Below are positions 34,900 through 56,797 of a DNA stretch of 64,000 bases, in pieces (within the stretch, counting starts at the first letter, position 1; every line of letters begins with the position of its first letter). The notes beneath the pieces are model-generated. The model was not told where the DNA came from. It made no database searches and was given only the letters and a program-made list of their open reading frames with translations. Both the position numbers and the translations under genes were made by a program. Source of the stretch: a virus (lineage: Duplodnaviria; Caudoviricetes); IMG/VR virus record IMGVR_UViG_3300028805_003982; one strand, given 5' to 3'.

Positions 34900-37101
34900 A
34901 TGAAGATTTTGAAGAGAAATAAGGTTGAGGTGGAGTTTGATTCTTCCAAGATCGTTAACGCCATTACCAAGGCCAATAATTCCGTTCTTGAGGCGGAGAG
35001 GCTCGGCAGTGAGTGCATTAATAAGATAGCTTCTGAGGTCGTTTCTGACTGCGAGGCTCTTGACCGTGTCGTTTCCGTTGAGGAAGTACAGGACATGGTT
35101 GAGAAGAAGATCATGGAAGCCGGCGCTTATCAGGTTGCCAAGAACTATATCACATATCGTTACACAAGGCAGCTTCAGCGTCAGAAGAACACGACGGATG
35201 ATGCTATCCTTTCTCTCGTAGCTCATAAGAATGAAGAGGCGAAGGAAGAGAACGCCAATAAGAACCCCATCATCGCTTCTACGCAGCGTGATTACGTTGC
35301 CGGCGAGGTTTCCAAGGATCTTACCATGAGAGTCCTTCTTAACGATCCTGAGATCGCTGAGGCTCACGAGAACGGTATTATTCATTTCCACGATGCGGAC
35401 TACTTCCTGCAGACGATCCATAACTGTGATATCTGGAATCTTGATGATATGCTCCAGAACGGAACTGTCATTTCCGGTGTCATGATCGATAAGCCCAAGT
35501 CTTTTGCAACGGCCTGCAATATCGCAACCCAGATCGTTGCGCAGGTAGCTTCTTCTCAGTACGGGGGTCAGACTTTCTCTTTAGCTCATCTTGCTCCTTT
35601 TGTTGATGTATCGCGTCAGAAGTGGGCTAAGAAGATCAGGAAGGATATGGAAGAGGCAGGCGTGTCTTACACGGATGCTCAGTTTGACCAGCTGGTAGAG
35701 AACAGGGTCAGGGAAGAGATACAGAACGGCGTTCAGACCATTCAGTATCAGCTCGTAACTCTGATGACCACTAATGGTCAGACACCTTTCGTTTCCGTAT
35801 TCATGTATCTGGACGAGGTTCCTGAAGGCAGGACAAGGGATGACCTGGCAATGATCATTGAAGAGGTTCTTGTCCAGCGTAAGAAGGGTCTTAAGAACAA
35901 GGTCGGGCATTGGGTAGTAACAGCTTTCCCTAAGCTGCTCTATGTTCTTGACGAGGATAACATCTATCCCGATTCCAAGTATTACTATCTGACCAAGCTG
36001 GCTGCTGAATGCACCGCCAAGACAATGGTTCCTGATTACATCTCAGCTAAGAAGATGCGTGAGTTCAAGGGTGACGTATATGCCTGCATGGGCTGCCGTT
36101 CATTCCTTACTCCCGACAGGTTCACCGATGCCGGCGTGGGCAACATCGCCAAGGCTAAGAATTATGTTCCCGGCCAGCACAAGTATTACGGCAGATTCAA
36201 TCAGGGTGTTGTTACCATTAACCTTGTTGATGTAGCTTGTTCCTCATATAAGGACATGGATAAGTTCTGGCAGATCCTTAACGACCGCCTTGAGCTTTGT
36301 CACAGGGCTTTGCAGAAGAGGCATAAGAGACTTAAGGGAACTTTGTCTGATGTTGCTCCTATCCTCTGGCAGTACGGCGCTCTTGCAAGACTTGAACCCG
36401 GTGAGGTTATCGATCCGCTGCTCTATGACGGATATTCAACGATCTCCCTGGGCTACGCGGGTGTTTATGAGATGACACGTTATATGACCGGTGAATCTCA
36501 TACAGAGCCTAACGGACAGGCTTTCGCTCTTAAGGTCATGAACGCTCTCAATGACGCTTGCGCCAAGTGGAAGAAGGAAGAGAATATTGATTATTCTCTG
36601 TACGGCACTCCCATGGAGTCAACGACATACAAGTTTGCCAAGTGTCTGCAGAAGAGGTTCGGTATCATTCCCGAGGTTACAGACCACAGCTACATTACCA
36701 ACTCTTATCACATCTGCGTCCGTGAGCCTATCGACGCTTTTGAGAAGCTTTCCAAGGAAGCAGAGTTCCAGCGGCTGTCTCCCGGCGGTGCTATCTCTTA
36801 TGTAGAGGTGCCTAACATGCAGAACAACATCCCTGCAGTTCTTGCCGTCATGACTCACATCTACAATACGATCATGTATGCAGAGCTTAATACTAAGGCT
36901 GATTACTGTCAGGTTTGCGGATATGAAGGTGAGATCGATCTTGTAAATCAGGAAGGTAAGTGGATATGGAAGTGTCCTCAGTGCGGTTGTACCGATCATT
37001 CTAAGATGAACATCGCAAGGCGTGTCTGCGGCTATATCTCTACCAATGATATGAACAACGGCCGTAAGCATGAGATCGCAGAGAGGGTGCTGCATCTTTG
37101 A
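34900..37101 (+). CDS. nrdD: Anaerobic (class III) ribonucleoside-triphosphate reductase with ATP cone
   Basis: N-terminal ATP cone, IHFHDADY, MGCRSF, YITNSYH, CxxC/CxxC, RRVCGY glycyl-radical loop. Confidence 0.97.
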   Translation: MKILKRNKVEVEFDSSKIVNAITKANNSVLEAERLGSECINKIASEVVSDCEALDRVVSVEEVQDMVEKKIMEAGAYQVAKNYITYRYTRQLQRQKNTTDDAILSLVAHKNEEAKEENANKNPIIASTQRDYVAGEVSKDLTMRVLLNDPEIAEAHENGIIHFHDADYFLQTIHNCDIWNLDDMLQNGTVISGVMIDKPKSFATACNIATQIVAQVASSQYGGQTFSLAHLAPFVDVSRQKWAKKIRKDMEEAGVSYTDAQFDQLVENRVREEIQNGVQTIQYQLVTLMTTNGQTPFVSVFMYLDEVPEGRTRDDLAMIIEEVLVQRKKGLKNKVGHWVVTAFPKLLYVLDEDNIYPDSKYYYLTKLAAECTAKTMVPDYISAKKMREFKGDVYACMGCRSFLTPDRFTDAGVGNIAKAKNYVPGQHKYYGRFNQGVVTINLVDVACSSYKDMDKFWQILNDRLELCHRALQKRHKRLKGTLSDVAPILWQYGALARLEPGEVIDPLLYDGYSTISLGYAGVYEMTRYMTGESHTEPNGQAFALKVMNALNDACAKWKKEENIDYSLYGTPMESTTYKFAKCLQKRFGIIPEVTDHSYITNSYHICVREPIDAFEKLSKEAEFQRLSPGGAISYVEVPNMQNNIPAVLAVMTHIYNTIMYAELNTKADYCQVCGYEGEIDLVNQEGKWIWKCPQCGCTDHSKMNIARRVCGYISTNDMNNGRKHEIAERVLHL

Positions 37102-43220: not shown

Positions 43221-43400
43221 CAACGACATTAAGTTAAGGGGTTGAGTAGCTCGACGAGGCGTAAGAGTTGCGGATAAGATGCTCCTAATAATAGCCGGAA
43301 TTGCTGTTTGAACCAGCCTTTGTAAGTTGCATCACTGATAAGCTCCGGCATCGCTGCAAGGTTCGAATCCTTGTCTTGACCCTTTAGCTTAATGACATTG
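43221..43400. mobile_element. MITE of the same TIR family (180 bp) enclosing a tRNA-like RNA
   Basis: CAACGACATTAAGTTAAG (43221-43238) and TTTAGCTTAATGACATTG (43383-43400); flanks ATACCAACGT / ATACCCACAT (8/10, decayed TSD). Confidence 0.7.
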
Positions 43401-43428
43401 ATACCCACATAAAACAGGAGACAATCAG

Positions 43429-44733
43429 GTGAAGAAGAGCCGTTTAAAGAAGGGTTATACGAAAAAGGGTTATGTGTTCAGACTGTACCCTGACGATTCA
43501 CAAAAACATTTCATCAAGCGGTGCTGCAACGCAGCTGCCATTGTGTATAACATAGCTCTTCAAAACGATAAAGAAAAGCGAAAGAAGGCCCGCGAAGAAG
43601 GCGCAAAATACAGGTATAGCGCATTTGATGCGGCTAAAGAGATCAGGGTGCTGAAAGACACTCCTGATGAAAACGGGAACTTCCCTTATGGTTGGTTCAA
43701 CGAATTAGACAGCCGTTTGTTCGGTTTCGCGGCAGCTGATCTTGAATTTGCGTGGGATCGTTATTATGCGAATAAAAAAGAGCACGGATTTGATCGTAAG
43801 CATCCGAATAAATATAAACCCAAATTTAAAGATATTAAGTCTTGTGAAAAATCATACTCGACCAATAGTCATATTAAAATCATTGACGGTCAGTATATCC
43901 AGCTTCCCAAGATGAGTCCGATACGCATGATCATGCATCGTCCGTTGCCTGAGGGGGCTGCCATTACCAAGGTGACAGTATCCATTACTAAGTCCGGAGA
44001 GTATTATGCGTCGATCTCATTAACGCTGCCTGAACAGATCCTGCCTAATGACGGTGGAATGGTCGGTGTTGATGTGGGTATCAAGGAATACTATTGTGAC
44101 AGTAATGGAAACCAAGTCGATAATCCTAAGTTTTTAGCAAAAGCTGATAAGATAATGCGCCGCAGACAGAGAATGCTTTCCCGTAAAGAAAGGCTGCATA
44201 TTATCGGGTACACCTGTAAAAAGGGTGACTTGTCTGATATGGTGCCGAAGCAGGATAAGAAACATAAGTATCCGGTATATGATAGGCCTCTTGAAGAATG
44301 CAGGAACTATCAGAAGGATAAGCAGAAGGTTGCGAAGACACATGCAAAAGTGACCAGACAGCGTGCTTATTTCCAGGATATCGAAAGCCTTAAACTTGCA
44401 AAGGAAAACCAGTTGGTCTGTATGGAACATTTAAGAATACAGAATATGCAGAAGAATCATAAGCTGGCAGGAGCTATCTCAGACGCGGCATGGTACCAGT
44501 TTAAATCCAAGGTGGAATATAAGGTTAAAGAGCATGGCGGAGTACTTGTGTCGATCCCTACTTTTTATCCTTCTTCTCAAACCTGTTCTGAGTGCGGGTA
44601 CCGTAATCCGCTGGTTAAGAACCTGAGTGTTCGTAAATGGACATGTCCTACGTGCGGTACAAAGCACGATCGCGACATAAACGCCGGGAAGAATATCCTG
44701 GCAAAGGGTTTGGAAATGCTTGAGGGCGCGTAA
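43429..44733 (+). CDS. tnpB: TnpB-like RNA-guided RuvC endonuclease associated with CRISPR mini-arrays (candidate type V / TranC-like effector)
   Basis: GYVFRLYP HTH start; RuvC-I VGVDVGIKE, RuvC-II CMEHL, SSQTCSECG/CPTCG zinc finger, RuvC-III HDRDINAGKNI; GTG start after AGGAG. Confidence 0.92.
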   Translation: MKKSRLKKGYTKKGYVFRLYPDDSQKHFIKRCCNAAAIVYNIALQNDKEKRKKAREEGAKYRYSAFDAAKEIRVLKDTPDENGNFPYGWFNELDSRLFGFAAADLEFAWDRYYANKKEHGFDRKHPNKYKPKFKDIKSCEKSYSTNSHIKIIDGQYIQLPKMSPIRMIMHRPLPEGAAITKVTVSITKSGEYYASISLTLPEQILPNDGGMVGVDVGIKEYYCDSNGNQVDNPKFLAKADKIMRRRQRMLSRKERLHIIGYTCKKGDLSDMVPKQDKKHKYPVYDRPLEECRNYQKDKQKVAKTHAKVTRQRAYFQDIESLKLAKENQLVCMEHLRIQNMQKNHKLAGAISDAAWYQFKSKVEYKVKEHGGVLVSIPTFYPSSQTCSECGYRNPLVKNLSVRKWTCPTCGTKHDRDINAGKNILAKGLEMLEGA

Positions 44734-44778
44734 CCCGGGCATTTATCACAAACCATTGAAACTTGAAAATCAAATAAC

Positions 44779-44930
44779 AGTGTAGGGAGGTTGGCCCCCG
44801 AACACTATAAAAGAACTCAAACCTTAACGGTTTGAAAAACGCTTGCGGAGACTCTAACATTGTAGCCGTACACCAAGGGCAGTGCCCGTACGGAGCGAGG
44901 TAGTCGATGAAACAAGAATCTATGTGTAAA
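44779..44930 (+). ncRNA. omegaRNA/tracrRNA-like scaffold, copy 1
   Basis: GTAGGG..CCCGAA..ACGCTTG.GGAGA..GTCGATGAAACAAGAATC layout resembles IS605 TnpB reRNA; stems covary with copy 2; 3' TGTGTAAA pairs with array A repeat. Confidence 0.8.
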
Positions 44931-44938
44931 TAATTGAC

Positions 44939-45039
44939 GGTTCAGACCTATTTGGTTTTGCACAGTTGTCAAACAAACGCGAGGTAAATCTTAAGTTCTT
45001 TAGGGTTCAGACCTGTTTGGTTTTGTAAAGTTGTCGAAC
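44939..45039 (+). CRISPR. CRISPR mini-array A: 2 repeats (36 nt), 1 spacer (29 nt)
   Basis: GGTTCAGACCTATTTGGTTTTGCACAGTTGTCAAAC (44939-44974) and a variant at 45004-45039; spacer 44975-45003. Confidence 0.8.
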
Positions 45040-45085
45040 AAACCACTGTTAATAAAATACGAAACTTGATAATTGAATAACGATC

Positions 45086-45220
45086 AGAGTAGGGAGGTTG
45101 GCCCCCGAACTCTTTAAAAGAAAACGCCTGCAGAGATTCTAACATTGCAGCTATACATCATGGACTTTGTCTGTATAGAGCGAGGTAGTCGATGAAGCAG
45201 GAATCAAGTGTAAACCAAAC
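45086..45220 (+). ncRNA. omegaRNA/tracrRNA-like scaffold, copy 2
   Basis: Paralog of 44779-44930 with compensatory changes; 3' AGTGTAAA complementary to array B repeat TTTACACT. Confidence 0.8.
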
Positions 45221-45227
45221 CGTTGAG

Positions 45228-45461
45228 GTTTGAGAACATCATGTTTTTACACTGTTGTCAAACAGAGTGATTGCGTTCTTGATTTCTTCAGCAGTTTGAG
45301 AACATCATGTTTTTACACTGTTGTCAAACCTCTCCTGAACTTCGCGTGTCTCGGCCTGAGTTTGAGAACATCATGTTTTTACACTGTTGTCAAACCTGTG
45401 CCGCTTACCGCCCAGCCAGCAAGTTGTTTGAGAACATTATGTTTTTACACTGTTATCAAAC
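45228..45461 (+). CRISPR. CRISPR mini-array B: 4 repeats (36 nt), 3 spacers (30 nt)
   Basis: GTTTGAGAACATCATGTTTTTACACTGTTGTCAAAC at 45228, 45294, 45360 and a degenerate copy (2 mismatches) at 45426; three unique 30-nt spacers. Confidence 0.96.
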
Positions 45462-45534
45462 AAACCGTGTTATAATAATTAAGTAGGTAACCAACAAGGA
45501 TACCTACAAAAGAACCTTGATAATTATCATATAT

Positions 45535-45707
45535 CCTCCGCGCTAGTGCATTGTTTATGCTTAAACTCAGTTTGTTAGACTGTATTATCCCCTTTCAATT
45601 CTATTGCAAAGCGTTTATTACTAATATCATAGTGGTTTACATTGTTTTGTATTTAATTGATCTATCTTGCGTAAACAAGCCCGGTGCGATTCCGGGGCGG
45701 AGGACCA
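45535..45707 (+). ncRNA. tRNA-like RNA with about 105-nt insert in place of the anticodon arm
   Basis: Acceptor CCTCCGC/GCGGAGG + A-CCA, T-arm CCCGG-TGCGATT-CCGGG, 10-bp inner stem TTGTTTATGC/GCGTAAACAA. Confidence 0.6.
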
Positions 45708-45894: not shown

Positions 45895-45969
45895 CGCAGG
45901 GATGTGCAGCGGATGCATAACGGGCCCATAACCCGAAGGCGGCAGGTTCGACTCCTGCTCCTGCAACCA
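45895..45969 (+). tRNA. tRNA-fMet(CAT)
   Basis: C1:A72 mismatch, GGG/CCC anticodon stem, CCA. Confidence 0.85.
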
Positions 45970-45976
45970 GATGCAT

Positions 45977-46052
45977 GGGTCAGAAGGCACAATGGGGTGC
46001 CGCGTGCCTTGCAAGCATGAAATGGCGGGTTCGATTCCCGTGTGATCCACCA
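45977..46052 (+). tRNA. tRNA-Ala(TGC)
   Basis: Cloverleaf, G3:U70, CCA. Confidence 0.85.
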
Positions 46053-46182
46053 AGGAAGTGAGGATCAAAGTGTGCAACAAACCGTAAGGGTTTATAGGAA
46101 GGTGGCTTGTCCTTATAGACGTGAGATCTTCCGACTTAGCAGTTCTGATGCCGTTCGCGGCGGTGCACACGCTGCCAAATCC

Positions 46183-46258
46183 ACCCGTATAGCTCAGCCG
46201 GGAGAGCGCCTGCCTTACAAGCAGGATGTCGGGGGTTCGAACCCCTCTGCGGGTACCA
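46183..46258 (+). tRNA. tRNA-Val(TAC)
   Basis: Cloverleaf, CCA. Confidence 0.92.
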
Positions 46259-46448
46259 GATGCATCATACGGAAGGTTTCGTCACCCGTATGTAAAAACC
46301 TGAGGGTAAGGTCCTAAGTGAAACGAAACCGCTTAGGAATAGCGCAGGACAGTTAGCCCAGGTGTGGCCTATTCTCCGCGGAGATATAAAGCCCGTGCTT
46401 ATAGATTCCGCTGCGCATTTAATAATACAGAAATAAGGAGCATTCATT

Positions 46449-46757
46449 ATGTATTGCAAGCAATTCCAAGATATCATCGATTGCATAGGCATTGATGAAC
46501 CCTTTTATGTCATAAACGGAATGTATGAAGCACGTCTTATGGAAACCCGTGAAGGTGATATCCGCCTTGACATGTATGTCGTACTTGAGAAGCAACAAAA
46601 TGAAGTCATATCACGCGTAGTCAACCCATCTGATACATGTGATCTTGATATTGAACCTATGAAGAAAACGCAAAGACGGAGTTATTTCAATCAGTGGAAG
46701 CATCCGAATGAAAGACATGGCTTTTCTGAAGATACTTCTTCAAATATTTCTTTATAA
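46449..46757 (+). CDS. Hypothetical protein
   Basis: 102 aa, RBS AAGGAG. Confidence 0.6.
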   Translation: MYCKQFQDIIDCIGIDEPFYVINGMYEARLMETREGDIRLDMYVVLEKQQNEVISRVVNPSDTCDLDIEPMKKTQRRSYFNQWKHPNERHGFSEDTSSNISL

Positions 46758-46812
46758 GTCTTATTCAAACGTCTTTAAGTATTTCCAAAACACATGATAG
46801 GAGAAGACTGAA

Positions 46813-47145
46813 ATGAATGAAGTTTTGAGTTATGATCAGTTAACCGACGAAGCGTTAGATCTGGATTCTTTTGATAACTTTCTGGTTAAGGACAAGAAGC
46901 GTATTGCCAGACGCCGGAAGAACATTACAAAGGCTCTCCGTAAGCGTTCGATCACTCGTCAATATGGTGTTTATGACGGCACTGACTGGTACAACAATCT
47001 GCACCAGTACAGCAAGAATAAGATACATTGTTCCTGCCAGATGTGTGCTTTCAATAACAAGAGGGCTCGTCGTAAGGAGTATACCTTGAGTGACCTCAAA
47101 AAGCTCGAATATGTAAGGTCACAGTTGGACGACTGGGCTTGTTAA
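46813..47145 (+). CDS. Basic hypothetical protein with HCSCxxC motif
   Basis: 110 aa, YSKNKIHCSCQMC. Confidence 0.7.
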   Translation: MNEVLSYDQLTDEALDLDSFDNFLVKDKKRIARRRKNITKALRKRSITRQYGVYDGTDWYNNLHQYSKNKIHCSCQMCAFNNKRARRKEYTLSDLKKLEYVRSQLDDWAC

Positions 47146-47187
47146 CAAATAACGTTTGGAGAATGCCGCTGTCGGAGGGTTTTAAAC

Positions 47188-47685
47188 ATGAAGAACCGTA
47201 ATGTTAATAAGTACAATCGTGGCCTTCTTTCAGTAAGAAGATTAAAGCCGAATGATGATGCTGTTTGTATGCCGAATGCCAAAACAGATCATCTGAAGAT
47301 GTCCAAACGAAGAAGGGCGCAGCTTGAAAGCCAGAGAAGAAGATTCGGTTTTACTGATACCGAGACTTATGATCTGGATTATACGGCAAGTGTCTGGCTC
47401 TACATGCATCTTAAGATGTTCCTTGACGTCGGCGGGAAGATAGTTAATTTCGAATGGGAAGGGAACTGGTCTGATGAATTAAGAAAAGATCTTAAAGAAG
47501 TCGGTGTTGACGTTGAAAAATATCATAACGACAAACTCGTGTTTGAATACATCTGTACTCTGCTTGAGGAGGCGGACCGCATCTTTTGTAAAAGTTCTTC
47601 TCTTGAAGAAGACGACAAAGGACACAAGCTTCAGACCAAGGCTTTTAAGATCTTTGCGGTTATGATGCCGTACGCGTGGTGGTAA
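47188..47685 (+). CDS. Hypothetical protein
   Basis: RFGF...ETYDLDYT...WW C-terminus. Confidence 0.7.
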   Translation: MKNRNVNKYNRGLLSVRRLKPNDDAVCMPNAKTDHLKMSKRRRAQLESQRRRFGFTDTETYDLDYTASVWLYMHLKMFLDVGGKIVNFEWEGNWSDELRKDLKEVGVDVEKYHNDKLVFEYICTLLEEADRIFCKSSSLEEDDKGHKLQTKAFKIFAVMMPYAWW

Positions 47686-47686
47686 C

Positions 47687-48433
47687 ATGTCAAAATTATT
47701 TCCCAATTTCAGAAAGCCCCAAATTAAGATTCAAATGCCGGCTATTAACAGCCCTGAACTGAAACTGTTATCCAGGTTTGACCTTCATTTCATTTCGATA
47801 ACCGGGCTTAAGATCTTAGCGATCATCTCGATGCTGACAGACCATATCGGAGTAGCTCTTTTCCCGGATGTGCAGCTTTTAAGGATTATAGGCAGGATCG
47901 CGATGCCCTTATTTGCATTCTGCATTGCCGAAGGGTATATCCATACCCGGAACAAGCTGCATTATCTGGCCAGGCTCTGCATCTTTGCAGCCATAAGCGA
48001 GGTGCCTTATGATCTGATGAACTACGGACATATCGAGTTTGAAAACCAAAATATACTGTTTACTTTTGCCATTGCCGTATTAACCTTGGTAACGTTCGAG
48101 GCTCTTCGTAAAGAGAAGAGGGAAAACAGGATCATCTTTACCTTCCTGGTTTCGTTCCTCGCGTTCGGGATTGGGGGAGAATATCATGTGCTGGCAGTAG
48201 GACTTGTCTTTATATTCTACATGCTCCAAGCATATTCAACTGTCTTCAAAACCTTCGCGGGTATCTTTTATTCCTTTTTCTTTTTTGATTCAAGCATATA
48301 CGGATTTTCGCTGCTGGGCTTTGTGCCGATCCTGTTTTATAACGGTAAAAGAGGGAAGGGGCTGAAATGGTTGTTCTACATTTTTTATCCGGCTCACATG
48401 CTGATCTTATACCTTTTAAGTATCTTCTTTTGA
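47687..48433 (+). CDS. TraX-family membrane protein
   Basis: LKILAIISMLTDHIG, GRIAMPLFAFCIAEGYIHT, QNILFT, YNGKRG...FYIFYPAHM. Confidence 0.85.
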   Translation: MSKLFPNFRKPQIKIQMPAINSPELKLLSRFDLHFISITGLKILAIISMLTDHIGVALFPDVQLLRIIGRIAMPLFAFCIAEGYIHTRNKLHYLARLCIFAAISEVPYDLMNYGHIEFENQNILFTFAIAVLTLVTFEALRKEKRENRIIFTFLVSFLAFGIGGEYHVLAVGLVFIFYMLQAYSTVFKTFAGIFYSFFFFDSSIYGFSLLGFVPILFYNGKRGKGLKWLFYIFYPAHMLILYLLSIFF

Positions 48434-48655
48434 AATTTAGGTAACAAATCTAAATTTTTATGTTATAATGCAATTGATGAAATAGAAAAGGAGAAGATGC
48501 ATGAGACACTTTGTATCGCAGTCAAGTTCATTGCAGCGCTGTCAAACCGGCAGTTCTGTATTGCCGCGGTCACGGTGATCTTCTCCTTGTCTTCATTACT
48601 GCTTTCTTTTAATGAGTGAGGGTCGTCATTGTGATGACCCTTTCAGTTTTTATAC

Positions 48656-48741
48656 GCCGTGTGTCCGGGATGGTGAGGAGGGCGCCTTGAAAGCGTTTGA
48701 CCGGGAACGGTTTGCAGGTTCGAATCCTGTGCACGGCGCCA
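48656..48741 (+). tRNA. tRNA-Ser(TGA)
   Basis: Cloverleaf with long variable arm, G-CCA. Confidence 0.9.
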
Positions 48742-48745
48742 AAAC

Positions 48746-48838
48746 GATCATGTAAGCCTAACTGGTAAGGCACCCGCTTGGAAAGCGGGGAGTAACCGGG
48801 CAACCGGCGTGAAGGTTCAAGTCCTTCCGTGATCGCCA
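48746..48838 (+). tRNA. tRNA-Ser(GGA)
   Basis: Long variable arm, G-CCA. Confidence 0.9.
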
Positions 48839-48842
48839 AAAC

Positions 48843-48931
48843 GGCAGATAAATCCGGACGGCTCCGGACCCTGTTTCGAAAACAGGTGGTACTTAACAAA
48901 GTATGAGGATCGTCACCTCTGTCTGTCGCCA
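48843..48931 (+). tRNA. tRNA-Ser(CGA)
   Basis: Long variable arm; atypical T-loop ATCGTCA. Confidence 0.8.
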
Positions 48932-48936
48932 AATAT

Positions 48937-49012
48937 GCCTTCATAGCTCAGCAGGCAGAGCGCATCCATGGTAAGGATGAGGTCGCCGGTTCGATCCCGG
49001 CTGGAGGCTCCA
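48937..49012 (+). tRNA. tRNA-Thr(GGT)
   Basis: Cloverleaf, CCA. Confidence 0.92.
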
Positions 49013-49016
49013 ACAC

Positions 49017-49091
49017 AGGCCGGTGGTATAATCGGTAACACGTCGGACTCTGACTCCGAAGTTCAAGGTTCAAGTCCTTGTCGGCCTGCCA
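49017..49091 (+). tRNA. tRNA-Gln(CTG)
   Basis: Cloverleaf, CCA. Confidence 0.9.
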
Positions 49092-49096
49092 ATCAT

Positions 49097-49171
49097 GCCG
49101 AGTTAGTCTATCGGATAGAATCCCCGGCTACGAACCGGGGGAGACAGGTTCGACTCCTGTACTCGGTGCCA
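49097..49171 (+). tRNA. tRNA-Arg(ACG)
   Basis: Cloverleaf, CCA. Confidence 0.9.
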
Positions 49172-49175
49172 ATAC

Positions 49176-49249
49176 TGTCGTGTGGTGAAGCGGTATCACA
49201 TCTGACTTTGACTCAGAGATCGCAGGTTCGACCCCTGCCACGACAACCA
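49176..49249 (+). tRNA. tRNA-Gln(TTG)
   Basis: Cloverleaf, CCA. Confidence 0.9.
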
Positions 49250-49253
49250 ATAT

Positions 49254-49343
49254 GCGGATGTGGTGTAACAGGTATCACAACGGATTGCTAATCCGTCCTA
49301 CCCATTAAGGGTAGTGCACGTTCGAGTCGTGTCGTCCGCGCCA
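49254..49343 (+). tRNA. tRNA-Ser(GCT)
   Basis: Long variable arm, G-CCA. Confidence 0.9.
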
Positions 49344-49430
49344 TACAGGTCAGAGGGTTCGGGAGCGCCGGGCAACACCTCTGTACAAGGTGCTTTGGGA
49401 AGATTGCCCTTATCTCTGGCCTGTTAATGT

Positions 49431-49504
49431 GCATCCGTGGCAGCGGTCTGCCGTGCGGTCTGCAAAACCGCATAAAGTGAGTTCGACTCTCACCGGATGC
49501 TCCA
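49431..49504 (+). tRNA. tRNA-Cys(GCA)
   Basis: Cloverleaf, U73-CCA. Confidence 0.85.
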
Positions 49505-49575
49505 TTTGTTAATAGTGTTCTATATGTGTTTTTTGCGGTCATAATCTACCTAATCGTATGAATAGGAGGCTGGTT

Positions 49576-50601
49576 ATGAGCGAGTTCAAGAAGATAGATC
49601 TGTTTAAGACTTTTCCTTGGTTAAATCAGGAAGGTACCAGAGATCTGAAGTATAACGATGTTTACACTCTGGACGATAAGGCATACGTTGCTTTTGAAAA
49701 ACGCGGCGATTCAACTAATGCTTTTATGCTTCTCGCGGGGGATAAGAACATTCTCGATGAGATCAATCCCGTTGATGGTGTGGGCGGATGGATCAGAGAC
49801 TGCATTGATGTTCAGGACGAGTTCGAGGATTACGTTGATGAATATGTGGAAGCCAGTGAAATGGATGACCCCAGACCTTATTGGGCAGACCGGGGGGCAC
49901 GTATCGCTGATTTCCTTGGCGACGAGGATTATAAAGAAATTGAAAAGGAGTTCTTTGAGGAGTGGTGCAGAAACCCCGAAAATGCCAGAATGTTTACGAT
50001 CCTGACTTTGGCAGTCGATCCTGACAACGTTAACATGTTCGGTAAGAACGCCGACGGTGAAGTGTGTTTGCTGGACCCCGACAGAAGATTTTATTCCGAG
50101 AACTGGGAAGAAGAGAATCTGACTGAAGCTGATCTGCCCAAGATGCAGAAGATAGTTGAAGAGGTTTTGAAAAAGGGCGTTAAGCAGGTATATCGCGACA
50201 CGGATTCTGAAATTAAAGAGGTCGATTTTACCAAAGGTGAATTAACCGCCTACAACGATTTTGCGATCATCGTTAGCCGTTTGTGTTCTCACGGAAGCAT
50301 GATGGGTTCTGTTATAAGGCCTTTGGAAGACGGCAGGTTTGAAGTAACCGGTTGCCGCGTAGTTAAAATGATAACCAGACAGGATTTCGATACGGATCTT
50401 GAATACGACAAGGCAGTTGATGAAATGATGAAGACTGCCGACGGAGTAACGGGGGAGTTCGTTACCGACGATCTTATCGCTTACGTTGAAGTAAAAGAGT
50501 TCCCCGATTCTTCTTATACGATAGATAAAGTAACCTTTTTTGGTAAGCCTTTGACGTTCCCCGATAATGACGTTGACGGCAACGGCAGGAATATGGACTA
50601 A
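49576..50601 (+). CDS. Acidic hypothetical protein
   Basis: ATG at 49576 after AGGAGG. Confidence 0.75.
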   Translation: MSEFKKIDLFKTFPWLNQEGTRDLKYNDVYTLDDKAYVAFEKRGDSTNAFMLLAGDKNILDEINPVDGVGGWIRDCIDVQDEFEDYVDEYVEASEMDDPRPYWADRGARIADFLGDEDYKEIEKEFFEEWCRNPENARMFTILTLAVDPDNVNMFGKNADGEVCLLDPDRRFYSENWEEENLTEADLPKMQKIVEEVLKKGVKQVYRDTDSEIKEVDFTKGELTAYNDFAIIVSRLCSHGSMMGSVIRPLEDGRFEVTGCRVVKMITRQDFDTDLEYDKAVDEMMKTADGVTGEFVTDDLIAYVEVKEFPDSSYTIDKVTFFGKPLTFPDNDVDGNGRNMD

Positions 50602-50614
50602 AGGAGATCAGACC

Positions 50615-51334
50615 ATGGACGATAAATACTTATACACAGGTAATTGGTACAAAACAGAAGACGGCAAGATCCTTCACATTGCTCAGGATGACTGCCCTCA
50701 AAACCCCCGTGAATGGGACGGGTGGCTTGGTAAGATTTTTTCCGTTTCCCGTTACGTGACAGGTGAAACCGATAAGGAAGGCCTTAAGTGCTGGGACGAT
50801 CTGTTACAGAAATACGGGGTAGAACAGAGCGGTACTGATATGCAGAAGGATTTTCCCGTTGACTGCAGAAATCTCATAGAAGCAGCAAAAGAGAAGGGAG
50901 ACGTTCTCCTTCCTATGTCCATATATGACCACAGCGGAATAACCCTTTATGTCGGTCTTCCCAGCGACCATTTTGACGGGCGTTGGGATTGTTCGTTTGT
51001 AGGTTTCATGATCGCGGACGGCAAGGATCTTGCTGAGCGTAAGCTTTCTTACGATGACGCTGTACAGATTCTTGAAGGCGAAGTAGCCATCTTGGACTGC
51101 TATTATACCGGTTCCGTTTACGGATATATTCTTTATGACGCGGAGTCCTTAGATGAGATCGATTCCTGCTGGGGCTTTTTCGGCAGCGAGATCAAGTCTT
51201 TTGAAGAGAGTGTTGGTCTGAAGATAACAGAAAATCTCGGCAGCGGCTATTCCGACGTCAACGAGTGTTTCGAGAGCAACAGGGAGTCCTTTGAGGAAGA
51301 AGCGAATCTTCGTAATATCAGGGGGTTTGAGTAA
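50615..51334 (+). CDS. Hypothetical protein
   Basis: NPREWD, YDHSGITL, WD..VGF, DSCWGFFG motifs, which I recognise from mobile-element proteins. Confidence 0.75.
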   Translation: MDDKYLYTGNWYKTEDGKILHIAQDDCPQNPREWDGWLGKIFSVSRYVTGETDKEGLKCWDDLLQKYGVEQSGTDMQKDFPVDCRNLIEAAKEKGDVLLPMSIYDHSGITLYVGLPSDHFDGRWDCSFVGFMIADGKDLAERKLSYDDAVQILEGEVAILDCYYTGSVYGYILYDAESLDEIDSCWGFFGSEIKSFEESVGLKITENLGSGYSDVNECFESNRESFEEEANLRNIRGFE

Positions 51335-51963
51335 TGGACGTGATCGACGGCAGATTTGAACCAGTTAAGCGTACTGCCGTGGACGGAAAGACCTGGTGGG
51401 TAGTATATGACAATAAAAGGCATGGTTACAGCTCTTACATTTGCCATGGTAAGTACGAAACCAGGAAACAGTGCGAGCAGGCGATAAAAGCGTCGTATAA
51501 GTATTTTTGCGGTGTCTCCGGGGAAGCCGGCAGATCTGTAGAAAGGAGAGAAAAAATGACAAACTATAATGACCTGAGAGACGGTCAAGAGTTCTATGCT
51601 AATGGTTACAAGAAAGGCTACGAGGACGCAAAGAAAGAGTTTGAAAGTAAGATTATTACAAAGGCTATCAGCGAAGAATTAGAAGCATTACCCAAAGAAA
51701 TTGATGGTGATAAGTTATTGATGCTATCAACGTTTGGGGCAGGAGTTAGATTTAATATCCTTGGTAAATTAAAAGAAAGTAAGAAAGATGACATGTCTCC
51801 TGATGTGATAAGCAAGATCTTAGCAGATTTCATATTGGATGACATTGAGAACGCCGATGAGGATTTTGTTAAAGAAAAGTTTGAAACCTTAGGGGTTACA
51901 CAGGAATTGTTAGATACGTTAGGCGTCGATTACCGCCTGGAAGGGGAAAAACCTAGTCTTTAA
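51334..51963 (+). CDS. Hypothetical two-module protein
   Basis: 209 aa; possible internal start at 51556. Confidence 0.65.
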   Translation: MDVIDGRFEPVKRTAVDGKTWWVVYDNKRHGYSSYICHGKYETRKQCEQAIKASYKYFCGVSGEAGRSVERREKMTNYNDLRDGQEFYANGYKKGYEDAKKEFESKIITKAISEELEALPKEIDGDKLLMLSTFGAGVRFNILGKLKESKKDDMSPDVISKILADFILDDIENADEDFVKEKFETLGVTQELLDTLGVDYRLEGEKPSL

Positions 51964-51978
51964 GAAGATGGGTGCGAT

Positions 51979-52761
51979 ATGGGGGATAATATGAGCAATC
52001 AAAAATATGTTGCGATACTCTGTAAGAGCAGTGAAAACGACGAAAGCATTGTCCTTGTTTCTTCTGATGAGCTGTTGGAGGTCATTCAAAATCCCGGCAG
52101 CTACAGATACAGTCCATCTAACGGGATAATGTACGGGGATGAAGAGATCAATAAATGCTTTAATCTTAATAAGATCAAAGATTTTGTCCTCATTGATTCT
52201 AACAGTCTTCCGGGCAAGTCCTCCGGATGGCCTAACGTAGTCCCGTCCTGGGCTAAGGTTTCCACTAAGATCAACAATCCTCAGTATATTAAGCTGGATT
52301 CTTTGGCTCCTTACGTCGAGATAGTTGCCATGGACCCGATAGAATTTGACATCAAGTCAATGGAATCGGTTAAGAAGGCAGCCAAACAGGTTATCGATAA
52401 CATTGCTGCTTTAGAGGATACTTGTTCGGAGATTTGTTATAAGTACGATCCTTACGACAACATAGACCCGAATGAATTAAGACGGATCTTATTCGATGAT
52501 ATTGTTCTTGTATCAAACCCCAGATTTGTTCCCATGCAGATAACATCCGAAGACGGATCTTTCTGGTGGCAGATCTACGATGCCAAGAACAGGGAGTTTA
52601 ATCATCTCGGGGGCACCAAGCACTATCCAACAAAAGAAAAATGTCAGGCGGCTATTGATTATTCTCAGGCACACGGGCTCCTGGCAACTGTTGATAAAGA
52701 CATATTTACCTGGGCTCCGAAACAGCCGGAAGAAGTAGATGAACCGGGACACGATCTGTGA
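51979..52761 (+). CDS. Hypothetical protein
   Basis: 260 aa ORF. Confidence 0.7.
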   Translation: MGDNMSNQKYVAILCKSSENDESIVLVSSDELLEVIQNPGSYRYSPSNGIMYGDEEINKCFNLNKIKDFVLIDSNSLPGKSSGWPNVVPSWAKVSTKINNPQYIKLDSLAPYVEIVAMDPIEFDIKSMESVKKAAKQVIDNIAALEDTCSEICYKYDPYDNIDPNELRRILFDDIVLVSNPRFVPMQITSEDGSFWWQIYDAKNREFNHLGGTKHYPTKEKCQAAIDYSQAHGLLATVDKDIFTWAPKQPEEVDEPGHDL

Positions 52762-52789
52762 TCATAATAAAAGTAAAGGAGATAATATT

Positions 52790-53485
52790 ATGTACGTTTC
52801 TCAGAATAATCAGAAGTTATACTTAAATCATTGGGGATTTAATGCCTGCAGGCTTATGAGTATGTTGGCTACAGTCATCGAAGCTGCCGGCGGAGTGGTT
52901 GATTACAGATATCAGAAGACAGCGCTTGTCTGCGACAGGACCGTTTATGATAAAGCTCGTGAAAAGCTGGATATGTTAGATCACTTTAAGCAGGTTCTTG
53001 ATAAGAATCCTGAAATGAAAGATCAGATCCAGCCTAAGCTCGAAGTGCTTGAAAAGGAAGCTGAAGAGCTTGCAGGAACACCTGAAGTGTTTGTTCCTTG
53101 TGAGTTCCAGACGCATCTTAAATTCATGATCAACGACACTTTATATTATTATCAGGTTGACGACAATCCTTTTATGGAGTTCTATTATCAGAAGACTCCG
53201 ATCGTTAATGGAAGATACAGTAAAGATGCTTGTCTTATGGAAGCTTCAAAGCTCTGGTACGATGATTCCTTCTTAAAGGGCGGAGTTTCAGATGCAGATA
53301 TCAAGAAGGCAGCTGAAACGCTTGCGGGCGCATTGTTCAATGCACCCGAGTCTGAGATCATCCGCAGCAAGAAAACGATCAGCGTGCCCAACGCACATAA
53401 TAACGGGCATCACAAGGAAGTTGTTTTTGAGCCTGAACGTTTTTCCACGGAGCTGCCGCAGGGAAGAGAGACGCCGTCTTTGTAA
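52790..53485 (+). CDS. Hypothetical protein
   Basis: ATG at 52790 after AAAGGAG. Confidence 0.7.
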   Translation: MYVSQNNQKLYLNHWGFNACRLMSMLATVIEAAGGVVDYRYQKTALVCDRTVYDKAREKLDMLDHFKQVLDKNPEMKDQIQPKLEVLEKEAEELAGTPEVFVPCEFQTHLKFMINDTLYYYQVDDNPFMEFYYQKTPIVNGRYSKDACLMEASKLWYDDSFLKGGVSDADIKKAAETLAGALFNAPESEIIRSKKTISVPNAHNNGHHKEVVFEPERFSTELPQGRETPSL

Positions 53486-53577
53486 GGCAAAAAACACCTG
53501 TTGAAAAATAAAATTTAGAAAATTACGATTTTTCTGTTGTATTTTTAAAATGTGGTGTTATAATAGTAAGTGATGAA

Positions 53578-53788
53578 GGAAGTGCCTGTCCGACATCTGA
53601 TTACAAAAGACCTAAGGGCTGAAACGGGTCAGGTCCAATCGCCCGGTTAGGTGTGTGAGGGAAGTGAGGTTGGTCGCCGCAAGGTGTAAAGTCCTCCGCA
53701 CTCAAAGTGATGATGAAACATGCATCCGCCTAATCTTTAACCTGAAGGGTCCCCAAGATTGTAATCAGTTGTGAGATAAGGGCTTCCT
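53578..53788 (+). ncRNA. Putative structured ncRNA (about 210 nt)
   Basis: Follows promoter TGTTATAAT; closing stems GGAAG/CTTCC and CTGATTACAA/TTGTAATCAG; T-run after. Confidence 0.55.
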
Positions 53789-54103
53789 CTTTTTATACTT
53801 AAACGAAAGGATAAAAGACTATGGTTACTGTTGTTATGAAGAGACATAACGATCTGATGCCCAAGGCGTATGAGAATGATACGCTCGGTTTCGCATGGTC
53901 TTTAGTTCCGGCTATATTCGTACGTACATTGGGTACAGGCAAAGAATATATCGGAAGCAAGGGGCGATTAAGATGTTAATCACAGCTTTTGTTTAAGCTC
54001 AAACAGAATAGAGAAGCATCAAGGATCGCCCGAAGAGAATAAAATCGGACGATCCTTTTTAATTCTCGTGAACATTGACAACTGAATATTTTCTTTTAAA
54101 CAT

Positions 54104-54177
54104 TCCCCTGTCATTTAAAGGTAGGATGGCTGACTGTTAATCAGTTTATGGAAGTTCGATTCTTCCCGGGGGAGCCA
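54104..54177 (+). tRNA. tRNA-Asn(GTT)
   Basis: Cloverleaf, G-CCA. Confidence 0.9.
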
Positions 54178-54181
54178 ATAT

Positions 54182-54256
54182 ATCCGCATGGTGTAATCGG
54201 TAGCACGGCAGTCTCCAAAACTGCTTGTCGGGGTTCGAGTCCTCGTGCGGGTGCCA
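54182..54256 (+). tRNA. tRNA-Trp(CCA)
   Basis: Cloverleaf, CCA. Confidence 0.9.
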
Positions 54257-54352
54257 TATGAAAAGTAAAAAGGAAAAAGTCAAGGATACATTGTTGACCA
54301 AGGTGAAGTCCGGAATGATCTGAGGAAGAGAATGTAACACCGATAAGTATTC

Positions 54353-54420
54353 TGAGCAATGGTGTAAGCGGAAGCACGCAGAGTGATGGCCGGAAGTGCA
54401 GGTTCAAGTCCCGCTTGCTC
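54353..54420 (+). pseudogene. Degenerate tRNA
   Basis: Acceptor TGAGCAA/TTGCTCA, D and T arms present; anticodon stem unpaired; no CCA. Confidence 0.55.
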
Positions 54421-54435
54421 ACTTTTCATTCTTAT

Positions 54436-54510
54436 GCCCCTGTGGTGTAACCGGTAACATGACTGACTCTGACTCAGTTATTCAAGGTTCAAATCCTTGC
54501 GGGGGTGCCA
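54436..54510 (+). tRNA. tRNA-Gln(CTG)
   Basis: Cloverleaf, CCA. Confidence 0.9.
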
Positions 54511-54596
54511 TTAGAAGGTTAGTAAAGAAAACAGGCACTCTTTACGGATCTTCTGCGGGGATGATGAAAAACAGGCACTTTCTTCATCCCTTACAT

Positions 54597-54683
54597 GGGT
54601 CGGTAAACCGTAACTGGTAGCGGGACGGACTGTAAATCCGTTGTCGAGAGACTCTGTAGGTTCAAGTCCTACCCGGCCCACCA
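54597..54683 (+). tRNA. tRNA-Tyr(GTA)
   Basis: Long variable arm, CCA. Confidence 0.9.
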
Positions 54684-54692
54684 TTTTAAAAC

Positions 54693-54768
54693 GGATCGGT
54701 AGCTCAGTCGGTAGAGCGAGGGACTGAAAATCCCTGCGTCACAGGTTCGATTCCTGTCCCTTCCACCA
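54693..54768 (+). tRNA. tRNA-Phe(GAA)
   Basis: Cloverleaf, CCA. Confidence 0.9.
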
Positions 54769-54771
54769 GAT

Positions 54772-54846
54772 GTTCTCCTAGTTCAACGGCAGAACAACGG
54801 ACTCTTAATCCGTGAGATCGGGGTTCAAATCCCCGGGGGAGCACCA
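54772..54846 (+). tRNA. tRNA-Lys(CTT)
   Basis: Cloverleaf, CCA. Confidence 0.9.
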
Positions 54847-54914
54847 TAACCATTAAAGAGAAAGGAGAAGACACATGTTGCACAAACAGAAGTTAAACGT
54901 AGGTGTATTGACAA

Positions 54915-54989
54915 GCGTCTATAGTTTAACGGTAGAACAGCGGACTTTTACTCCGTAAGATGAGGGTTCGAATCCCTCTGGGCGTACCA
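54915..54989 (+). tRNA. tRNA-Lys(TTT)
   Basis: Loop CTTTTAC, CCA. Confidence 0.85.
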
Positions 54990-55062
54990 TATATGGGTCT
55001 GTAGCTCAACCAGGAGAGTTATCTCTAAAGAGTTGCAAAACTCCCGCAGCGCCGTTTTATAA

Positions 55063-55140
55063 CACGCGTTGGAGAAGAGGTCTAACTCGCCGGCCTTTCA
55101 AGTCGGTATTCGCTGGGTTCAAATCCCGCACGCGTGGCCA
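55063..55140 (+). tRNA. tRNA-Glu(TTC)
   Basis: Cloverleaf, G-CCA. Confidence 0.85.
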
Positions 55141-55266
55141 AAGAAACTCTAAGTGAAACGAGTAGGTCGTGTCTTGACACTAAGGCGATAACGATGCATC
55201 TGACTAAACTGAAGTGACGAAAGAAGTAACTGAAAAGGAGTCGCTCTCCCTGAGTTTCTGATCTAT

Positions 55267-55340
55267 GGCCCTTTCTTCTATCGGCAGGAAAGCAGGTTCT
55301 CAGCCTGACAAGCAGGGTTCAACTCCCTGAAGGGTCACCA
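55267..55340 (+). tRNA. tRNA-Glu(CTC)
   Basis: Cloverleaf, CCA. Confidence 0.85.
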
Positions 55341-55436
55341 ATGGGCAGCGGTTGTCCGGCGGCATAGAAAGGGTTCAAGTCCTGCACGCGCGGGTTCGAC
55401 TCCCGGCGTACATGGTGTCGAAATGCCGCATTTCAT

Positions 55437-55513
55437 ATCCTCGTGGCGGAACGGGCAGACGCAGACGGTTCAGAGCCGTAAAGTTACAGGTTCAAATCCT
55501 GTCGGGGATACCA
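55437..55513 (+). tRNA. tRNA-Leu(CAG), short variable loop
   Basis: Leu-type D arm, loop TTCAGAG, A-CCA. Confidence 0.8.
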
Positions 55514-55517
55514 AAAT

Positions 55518-55595
55518 GGCCTCGTAGCAGAATCTGGCATATGCACTGCACTAAGGATGCAGGGTTTGCGGGTTCGAATCCCGCCGGGGCTACCA
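55518..55595 (+). tRNA. tRNA-Leu(AAG), short variable loop
   Basis: CTGCA-CTAAGGA-TGCAG, A-CCA. Confidence 0.85.
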
Positions 55596-55599
55596 ATAT

Positions 55600-55673
55600 C
55601 CGGGTGTAGCGTAATGGCAGCGTTCGTGCCTTGGGAGCATGAGGTGTGGGTTCAACTCCCGCCACTCGGACCA
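55600..55673 (+). tRNA. tRNA-Pro(TGG)
   Basis: Cloverleaf, CCA. Confidence 0.9.
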
Positions 55674-55678
55674 TTTAT

Positions 55679-55752
55679 CGTAGCTTCTTCTAATGGTAGG
55701 AAGACCGTCTGATACGCGGTTAATGTCTGTTCGATTCAGTCAGCTACGACCA
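55679..55752 (+). tRNA. tRNA-Ile(GAT)
   Basis: Cloverleaf, CCA. Confidence 0.8.
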
Positions 55753-55829
55753 TGGGGCATAGCTCAACAGGTCAGAGCTCCGGCCTTATAAGCCGGCGGT
55801 TCAGGGTTCGAGTCCCTGTGCCCCTACCA
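55753..55829 (+). tRNA. tRNA-Ile(TAT)
   Basis: CCGGC-CTTATAA-GCCGG, CCA. Confidence 0.85.
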
Positions 55830-55832
55830 AAT

Positions 55833-55909
55833 GTCTGATTGGCGCAACTGGCAGACGCGGCTGACTCAAAATCAGTTTCTTCAGGGTTCGAGTCCCTGAT
55901 CAGACACCA
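55833..55909 (+). tRNA. tRNA-Leu(CAA), short variable loop
   Basis: Cloverleaf, A-CCA. Confidence 0.85.
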
Positions 55910-56074
55910 GTCGGGAGTACACGCGAGAATCACAAGCGGGCCGACGGTACATCGGCAGCCTGAACAGGATTAGGTGCACATGAGTCCTTAAGGGCAACGG
56001 CGGGGTAGTGTCCGTCCTCCCACACCAACGAGTTCTTTGCCTTTTTCTCTCCAAAAGAAATCGGTGACCGGTAT

Positions 56075-56151
56075 GCTTCCGTAGCTCCAATTGGCAGAGC
56101 GGGTGCCTTGTAATCACCAGGTTGTGAGTTCGAGTCTCACCGGAAGCTCCA
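56075..56151 (+). tRNA. tRNA-Thr(TGT)
   Basis: Cloverleaf, CCA. Confidence 0.9.
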
Positions 56152-56155
56152 ACAT

Positions 56156-56230
56156 ACTCCTGTCGTTCAACTGAAAGGACAGCACTCTTCTAAAGTGTCG
56201 ATCAAGGTTTGAGTCCTTGCAGGAGTACCA
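56156..56230 (+). tRNA. tRNA-Arg(TCT)
   Basis: Cloverleaf, CCA. Confidence 0.85.
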
Positions 56231-56355
56231 TTAAAAAACACGATAGCTTGGTAATTTGCTGAAGTTAGCTGCAAGGATAGGATATCGGGTAATCAGCAAA
56301 ACCTTAGTCCGAAAGTAGCAGAGAGGGTTTTTGAAGCCGTGTTTCCCTCATTTAT

Positions 56356-56432
56356 GGGGCCATAGCTCAGTTTGGGAGAGCGCCTGCCCTGCAAGCAGGA
56401 GGTCGCGGGTTCGATGCCCGCTGGTTCCACCA
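56356..56432 (+). tRNA. tRNA-Ala(TGC)
   Basis: Cloverleaf, G3:U70, CCA. Confidence 0.9.
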
Positions 56433-56720
56433 TTGCAAATTAAGCTGCCGGAATGAACCATTCCTATATCAGCGGTCCTGCTGATGAAACTAAACGATTG
56501 AAAGAACAACCAGGCAGCAGGAATTTCTGCAAAGCCTTTATTTACAAGGCTTTAGCAAAAACCGGGAAGGGAGGGACTGTATATAAAAGTATTATTTTGT
56601 ATTGCTTTGTATTGTGATGTACCGATTAAATAATACGTATTTATTTGTATGTCTTTGTATTGCTGTATAGTGTCAAACACAGTTATATATTTACAAAACA
56701 ATACGCGATCTTTGATAAAT

Positions 56721-56797
56721 GCCCGTATAGCTCAGCTGGGATGAGCATCTGCCTTACAAGCAGGAGGCCCAAGGTTCGAACCCTTGTGCGGGCACCA
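56721..56797 (+). tRNA. tRNA-Val(TAC)
   Basis: Cloverleaf, CCA. Confidence 0.9.

Follow-up and report, generated by a model that had tools for sequence, protein, structure and literature searches.

A TnpB-fold nuclease gene followed by tandem scaffold-and-array guide cassettes in a large ruminant-gut phage

A TnpB-fold effector is followed by two paralogous guide cassettes

We analyzed a 64,000-nucleotide (nt) stretch of viral DNA (IMG/VR record IMGVR_UViG_3300028805_003982), here called the window, in which a gene for a TnpB-fold nuclease, P0001, precedes two tandem cassettes for guide RNAs. We think it likely that this locus is a TranC-type, single-effector clustered regularly interspaced short palindromic repeat (CRISPR) system of a large ruminant-gut phage, working with a two-part guide. 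Both cassettes lie 3' of the effector gene, and each consists of a 21-nt leader motif, a structured scaffold resembling a tracrRNA (trans-activating CRISPR RNA), an 8-nt anti-repeat, and an array of 36-nt repeats with 29- to 30-nt spacers; the two scaffolds are direct repeats of each other with 80 to 92% identity. The original prediction, made from the letters of the window, had described two tandem scaffold-and-array modules in this order; direct repeats and covariance-model scores bear this out, and the positions and stems that it listed are right. The features, in which reRNA denotes the right-end element RNA of TnpB loci and L001 is the locus of the closest relative, are as follows.

43429-44733, plus strand: effector gene with a GTG start, encoding the 434-amino-acid (aa) TnpB-fold nuclease P0001 (Pfam, PDB sequence matches, AlphaFold2 [AF2] model with Foldseek, family alignment A1)
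44758-44778, plus strand: leader motif copy 1, GAAACTTGAAAATCAAATAAC, 5' of scaffold 1 (direct-repeat families D5 and D6; upstream sequences of relatives)
44777-44930, plus strand: scaffold 1, tracrRNA-like, homologous to TnpB reRNA (covariance model, 102.8 bits; alignment A2, consensus structure, fold)
44939-45039, plus strand: array A, with a repeat (44939-44974), a 29-nt spacer (44975-45003), and a degenerate repeat (45004-45039)
45061-45081, plus strand: leader motif copy 2, GAAACTTGATAATTGAATAAC (direct repeats)
45084-45220, plus strand: scaffold 2, tracrRNA-like, made up of 45084-45214 and the extension CCAAAC at 45215-45220 (covariance model, 123.3 bits; fold, duplex energies)
45228-45461, plus strand: array B, with four 36-nt repeats (starting at 45228, 45294, 45360, and 45426), the final one with two changes
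45264-45293, 45330-45359, and 45396-45425, plus strand: the three spacers of array B, 30 nt each
45512-45525, plus strand: leader motif copy 3, GAACCTTGATAATT, not followed by a scaffold (also in L001)

Scaffold 1 has an additional 22-nt hairpin (44814-44835) that is missing from scaffold 2 and from L001. The degenerate second repeat of array A is altered both in the segment that would pair with the anti-repeat (TTTGTAAA) and at its end (GTCGAAC). Leader copy 3 may be all that is left of another cassette.

Homology to TnpB reRNAs places the split of the guide in the terminal hairpin

We built a covariance model (R1) from the family scaffold and applied it to 100 loci with ordinary TnpBs of phages and bacteria. 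Forty-five of these loci matched, every match lying on the gene strand directly 3' of tnpB. In ordinary TnpB loci, the conserved motif GAAGCAGGAA is followed by a closed hairpin and then by AGTGTCAA. Most of the 18 reRNAs printed have the closed hairpin after GAAGCAAGAATC (e.g., CCCCCGGATT-TA-GCCGTGGGG), and a closed hairpin is visible in the fold of one such locus, L028; the end of the reRNA before the flank is AGTGTCAA in 11 of the 18, with GTAGTTCAC and TTCAAATCT among the other ends.

In the window, the scaffold tail holds the 5' arm of this hairpin alone, and the 3' arm, together with GTTGTCAAAC, makes up the 3' half of the repeat. The anti-repeat of scaffold 1, TGTGTAAA (44923-44930), pairs with TTTGCACA of repeat A, and that of scaffold 2, AGTGTAAA (45207-45214), pairs with TTTACACT of repeat B; pairing between anti-repeat and first repeat also appears in cis folds of the scaffolds. 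Because these arms and this end map onto the closed hairpin and the end of the unsplit reRNAs, homology shows that the break fell in the loop of an reRNA's terminal hairpin and that the piece 3' of it became the CRISPR repeat. By homology of sequence and structure, then, the guide is divided into a tracrRNA plus a CRISPR RNA (crRNA) that match the ancestral reRNA. A split at the terminal hairpin had been proposed from the window; the unsplit reRNAs of ordinary TnpB loci and a family of nine loci (described below) now support it.

P0001 is an intact member of the TnpB superfamily

The effector gene is an intact TnpB-superfamily gene whose product has a TnpB fold. P0001 matches the Pfam families HTH_OrfB_IS605 (E = 1e-23), OrfB_IS605 (E = 3.9e-12), and Cas12f1-like_TNB (E = 1.9e-9). 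The RuvC D/E/D residues of ISDra2 TnpB align with D215, E333, and D416, and a CxxC...CxxC zinc finger is formed by C386, C389, C406, and C409; triad and zinc finger alike are invariant across the family (alignment A1). Pfam, the ISDra2 alignment, and alignment A1 thus agree with the earlier description of a 434-aa TnpB with both elements intact, and the sequence suggests that P0001 is an active nuclease.

By sequence, the best solved relatives are 9yyg, an AI-designed RNA-guided nuclease (E = 6.7e-56), ISDra2 TnpB over its full length (E = 1.5e-50), and LaTranC over the C-terminal half only (E = 1.3e-40). The AF2 model of P0001 (predicted local distance difference test score [pLDDT], 85) finds ISDra2 TnpB (8h1j) as its best Foldseek match (E = 5.8e-23; template modeling [TM] score, normalized to the target, 0.80), followed by ISFba1 TnpB and LaTranC, the latter with a TM score of 0.56. 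Relative to ISDra2 TnpB, P0001 carries an insertion of about 38 aa after RuvC-I (about residues 255 to 293), a place where LaTranC also has extra residues. A 39% identical protein, P0016, shares this insertion; its locus (L185) has no array, and reRNA-like sequence alone follows the gene (L185 5189-5360). The insertion therefore seems older than the association with CRISPR.

The same arrangement recurs in nine family loci

A BLASTP search of 5.8 billion proteins returned 13 other clusters that are 42 to 76% identical to P0001; the next matches, at 40% or below, are mostly 363-aa TnpBs. P0001 to P0014 make up one side of a branch with a Shimodaira-Hasegawa-like approximate likelihood ratio test (SH-aLRT) support of 100. 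No relative above 40% identity was found in IMG/VR, GTDB representative genomes, or GenBank phages, and a nucleotide search of phages gave no match. Nine fetched family loci hold the gene (L001, L162 to L164, L166, and L181 to L184; L165 and L167 are second copies of two of them), and in 9 of 9 the common scaffold begins 20 to 45 nt past the stop codon and is followed by repeats. The arrangement seen in the window, a TnpB-like effector nested among TnpBs and adjoined by a CRISPR array, is shared by these nine loci. Flanking genes of the fetched loci are otherwise unrelated (phage capsid Gp23, sortase, HipA, Xis-integrase, and UvrD helicase).

Repeats in the six relatives' arrays that were parsed are 35 to 36 nt long, with spacers mostly of 29 to 31 nt, and most repeats end in ..ACACAGTnGTCAAAC or a close variant. 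The scaffolds follow the pattern CAGTGTAGGG..CCCGAACACT..ACGCYTRYGGAGA..GTC..GAARYARGAA. A consensus structure from 13 scaffolds contains 17 pairs, of which 7 show compensatory changes; covariation is clearest in a long-range helix, CYTR/YARG, whose first strand occurs as CTTG, CCTG, TCTG, CTTA, and CCTA with the complement kept each time. Most fetched relatives have a leader-related motif (TTGAC/TAAT) 5' of the scaffold, and the leader may serve as a promoter or as a processing site. Pairing of the leader sequence TTGA(C/T)AA with the repeat end TTGTCAA was considered and rejected, as changes in the repeat end are not matched by changes in the leader (L162, L164, L181, and L184). We also rejected a general phage promoter, since the window shows no enrichment of the motif elsewhere and a scan with the sigma-70 consensus scored at chance level.

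Both scaffolds appear to be under selection and are predicted to pair with either repeat

Across the 34 pairs of the minimum free energy (MFE) structure of scaffold 2, comparison with scaffold 1 gives 26 identical, 4 compensatory, 2 wobble-kept, and 2 broken pairs, with 10 substitutions over 63 unpaired columns. This pattern argues for selection on both scaffold RNAs, and the changes that had been noted earlier in four stems are real. Because compensatory changes keep the fold of both scaffolds, the sequences suggest that both cassettes are probably in use.

The original prediction went further and matched two scaffolds to two repeat families. Here the data do not follow it, since cognate specificity comes down to a single compensatory pair plus one change of G-U to A-U. 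In predicted duplexes between scaffold tail and repeat, the tail of scaffold 1 scores -9.2 kcal/mol with repeat A and -9.0 kcal/mol with repeat B, and that of scaffold 2 scores -14.1 kcal/mol with repeat A and -10.4 kcal/mol with repeat B. Scaffold 2 would thus pair best with repeat A, and the specificity of a scaffold for its own repeat is predicted to be weak. The extension CCAAAC (45215-45220), which follows the scaffold 2 anti-repeat, is complementary to repeat A too; the cross-pairing suggested earlier on the strength of this tail is consistent with the predicted energy.

Cassettes are gained, lost, and recombined within the family

The closest relative, L001 (76% identity), is a syntenic phage with the gene at the matching site. 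It has a single scaffold, the body of which resembles scaffold 1 and the tail scaffold 2, followed by an array in which A-type and B-type repeats are mixed. At L001 6581-6622, the junction GTTGTCAAAC|TTTACACTGTTGTCAAAC joins an A-type repeat directly to a B-type 3' half, which is a deletion or recombination scar within the array. Because L001 combines one mosaic scaffold with a mixed array that contains a repeat-fusion scar, we conclude that cassettes are gained, lost, and recombined.

Relatives carry one, two, or three cassettes, with two scaffolds in L166 and three in L183. The final scaffold of each of these two loci is shorter and has no repeats after it. By eye, it contains both hairpin arms (ACTGAAAG ... 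CTTTYRGT) before ..CCAAAGC, a closure that MFE folds do not settle; judged from its sequence, this last scaffold is possibly an unsplit reRNA. Another locus, L192, holds an orphan cassette (513-865) with a family scaffold (106 bits) and four repeats, and no effector gene is present in the 510 nt upstream. A contig matching L192 occurs in the sheep sample that holds the window locus. Other matches of a DNA-pattern scan for the scaffold, 13 in IMG/VR and 26 of 27 in metagenomes, were chance hits rejected by the covariance model, leaving L192 alone as real.

These observations lead us to a tentative proposal, which we hold to be possible though not the likelier case: that the guide cassette (leader, scaffold, and array) is the unit of evolution, duplicating, recombining, and separable from the effector, with several co-evolving scaffolds serving one nuclease and, in L166 and L183, possibly an unsplit reRNA besides. 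Were this true, a single living clade of phages of the ruminant gut would record the step from an reRNA to a tracrRNA with a crRNA.

Several smaller features of these loci were also seen. The L192 cassette follows an AT-rich, promoter-like region of its own, with an unrelated open reading frame (ORF) upstream, and L164 has sequence like this upstream region (TTGTATAGAAATATATTGAAAAA) 3' of its array. In L183, the second array opens with a spacer (5684-5714; GTGAAAAATATTGCGGTCGATGAAATAAGAA) that resembles a conserved scaffold segment (GTCGTTGAAATAAGAA); it may be directed at the scaffold of a rival element or be a scar of recombination. One array in each of L182 (5701-5796) and L163 (5860-5955) contains a spacer twice in tandem, a duplication of the repeat-spacer unit.

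Arrays differ between samples

The arrays are real and differ between samples. L181 and L182 encode an identical protein and share two spacers in matching order, and L182 has three more at the scaffold-proximal end; in a goat-gut run, the letters of array B before the last repeat are unlike those of the window. In a sheep-gut RNA library, contigs lie only over 44606-44756 and 44797-44984; the second of these starts inside scaffold 1 and passes through the first repeat of array A into the spacer. These contigs are a weak hint of transcription, as DNA carry-over is possible. Parts of the locus lacking coverage in runs X4 and X5 are uninformative either way.

A two-part guide is the preferred explanation

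On the reading we prefer, a TnpB-fold nuclease would be guided by a two-part RNA in which the reRNA-homologous scaffold is missing the terminal hairpin's 3' arm. The repeat of the crRNA would supply this missing arm (TTTGCACA or TTTACACT) along with the conserved reRNA end GTTGTCAAAC, so that the spacer that follows would act as the guide. Transcription would start from the leader, possibly placing the scaffold, the first repeat, and the first spacer on one transcript that could serve as a natural single guide; later spacers would be joined by the scaffold in trans through pairing of anti-repeat and repeat. The complex would cleave DNA of competing mobile elements or host loci, depending on a transposon- or protospacer-adjacent motif (TAM/PAM), and new spacers may be taken up through an adaptation module of the host.

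A number of observations weigh against this reading. No protospacer for the window spacers was found in the window or in 1.45 Mb of fetched loci (allowing up to 5 to 7 mismatches), BLAST of the spacers against GenBank phages and PLSDB plasmids gave chance-level matches only, and the exact 22-mers of four window spacers and of one spacer from L181/L182 are absent from IMG/VR, a search confined to exact 22-mers. The anti-repeat duplex is short (8 bp), and array A consists of one spacer and a degenerate second repeat. Single-sequence folds of the scaffolds show no significant gain in stability over shuffled sequences (z = -1.1 and -1.3), and such z scores are uninformative. No adaptation genes were seen, with no Cas family in 20 window ORFs (Pfam) or in the relatives' gene tables, in 64 kb of a phage of about 235 kb.

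One alternative is that a single cassette functions and the other is a decaying tandem duplicate produced by unequal recombination, in which case two scaffolds and two repeat families would have no functional meaning. The lone spacer of array A, the changes to its second repeat in both the pairing segment and the end, the L001 locus with one scaffold for a mixed, scarred array, and the ability of the scaffold tails to pair with either repeat type all fit this account. Scaffold 1, however, retains all conserved motifs (102.8 bits), differs from scaffold 2 in mostly structure-preserving ways, and is covered with array A by an RNA-library contig, and further scaffold copies stand in L166 and L183; we regard a single functional cassette as unlikely. 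A different possibility is that the arrays are served by another effector, encoded by the host or elsewhere on the 235-kb phage, with tnpB an ordinary transposon passenger. Virus-borne mini-arrays that borrow host Cas proteins do exist, and 64 kb of the phage is covered here. The co-occurrence of gene, scaffold, and repeats in nine loci with differing flanking genes speaks against this possibility, as do the homology that links the repeat's 3' half with the 3' end of reRNAs from related TnpBs, the matching anti-repeat in the scaffold, the location of the gene at the same site in syntenic L001, the unclosed terminal hairpin, and the lack of tnpA in the ORFs scanned, so that use by another effector is very improbable.

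Least probable of all, with hardly a chance of being right, is an active IS605-family TnpB/reRNA homing element whose repeats are duplicated transposon ends. Such an element would account for a protein closest to ISDra2 TnpB and a scaffold homologous to reRNA, but not for regularly spaced 36-mers with unique 29- to 31-nt spacers that turn over between samples, nor for the open terminal hairpin of the reRNA, and no TnpA was found in the ORFs scanned. The two-part guide accordingly remains the explanation we favor. It offers a sequence-level view of the site at which a TnpB reRNA was cut to give tracrRNA and crRNA, with unsplit homologues for comparison, and of a guide cassette able to multiply behind one effector. 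For genome editing, it points to a rare family of 400 to 470 aa whose natural scaffold variants have compensatory mutations built in. In phage biology, where few phages are known with TnpB-derived CRISPR effectors, a large and tRNA-rich one from the rumen joins the list.

Comparison with known TnpB-derived systems

The original prediction called the locus a new TnpB-to-Cas12 intermediate. The class had been published already as TranC, TnpB-like effectors with an reRNA split into tracrRNA and crRNA (Jin et al. 2025, Cell 188:6283, as summarized in PMC13565253 and PMC13639567), and phage-borne members, including CauTranC9, have been reported (bioRxiv 10.64898/2026.03.27.714800). By the defining features that can be tested on sequence, the window system is of TranC type, a known class, with its placement compared with LaTranC alone among TranCs. 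Like TranCs, it has a compact TnpB-like effector beside a short CRISPR array (no adaptation genes were seen in the ORFs scanned), a tracrRNA and crRNA guide derived from reRNA, and an enlarged helix after RuvC-I, as in LaTranC (9jfo/9jfq) and in clade 3 as outlined in 10.64898/2026.03.27.714800; its 36-nt repeats and the 2 to 9 repeats per array fall inside reported ranges. It differs in its two tandem cassettes (up to three in relatives) and in its carrier, a tRNA-rich large phage. In the accessible literature, we found neither tandem or orphan scaffold-and-array cassettes described behind one TnpB-like effector nor a tRNA-rich phage of the ruminant gut described with a locus of this kind.

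Judged by sequence and model, P0001 is not close kin of LaTranC, as its N-terminal half is left unaligned by phmmer and it lies nearer to ISDra2 TnpB (E = 1.5e-50 versus 1.3e-40; TM score, 0.80 versus 0.56). The independent origin claimed for the locus is not carried, the comparison having been made with LaTranC only, which is more distant than ISDra2 TnpB. With ISDra2 TnpB (8h1j and 8exa), P0001 shares the best-matching fold, the RuvC D/E/D residues, and the zinc finger, and relatives that have this kind of scaffold carry their reRNA directly 3' of the gene. Unlike ISDra2 TnpB, the window has no TnpA among the ORFs scanned and no insertion sequence (IS) ends, its scaffold begins past the stop codon, its terminal hairpin is split, and its guides would come from a CRISPR array rather than from flanking DNA. 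We rejected an IS605/IS607 transposon gene: the flanking ORFs contain no Y1 or serine transposase family, the terminal hairpin is open and followed by an array, and the gene sits at the same site in syntenic L001.

CauTranC9 and Cas12r of Thermus Lalka phages, a phage-borne TnpB-derived effector (10.64898/2026.04.20.719267), likewise pair a TnpB-like nuclease with a short array in a phage genome, and competition between elements is presumed. Compared by their available descriptions, CauTranC9 differs in having 38-nt repeats and is described without added domains, and Cas12r differs in its 564 aa, its 29-bp repeats, and its independence of a tracrRNA. Cas12f (type V-F) is similarly miniature, tracrRNA dependent, and TnpB derived; membership in that group was rejected, as P0001 matches it in the zinc-finger region only (E = 2e-6 to 3e-4), with a TM score of about 0.5 and no expanded REC/WED.

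The carrier is a large, tRNA-rich phage

The window is apparently a fragment of a large phage, with every long ORF on the plus strand and no ORF longer than 762 aa within its 64 kb; the longest contig in the cluster record of P0001 is 234,848 bp. The locus is present in sheep-gut and goat-gut metagenome runs. Forty-three tRNA genes lie in several clusters at 45895-59959, all on the plus strand, and Rfam finds tRNAs and nothing else in the window. Neither ARAGORN nor Rfam gives a match at 45534-45707, which lies between leader copy 3 and the first tRNA. PHROG matches include a tRNA nucleotidyltransferase (15836-17230), NrdD (34900-37101), and an integrase (61654-62724). Two adjoining sigma-70 family genes (regions 2 and 4; 24170-26164) suggest that the phage has promoters of its own.

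The original prediction had also noted that tnpA and cas1/2/4 were missing. Among 20 flanking or mid-size ORFs, Pfam found no tnpA or cas1 family, and the flanking ORFs have no Y1 or serine transposase family; that part of the claim stands, and the part on cas2 stays short of formal exclusion because small ORFs were scanned only in part.

Two further features of the window were seen. A PARG-like gene lies at 60694-61581. Between a promoter-like region and the effector gene's ribosome-binding site, about 180 nt (43229-43410) have no counterpart at the matching site in L001 (compare L001 4903-4999); this stretch includes a tRNA-like T-arm, GGTTCGAATCC, and looks like an inserted small element.

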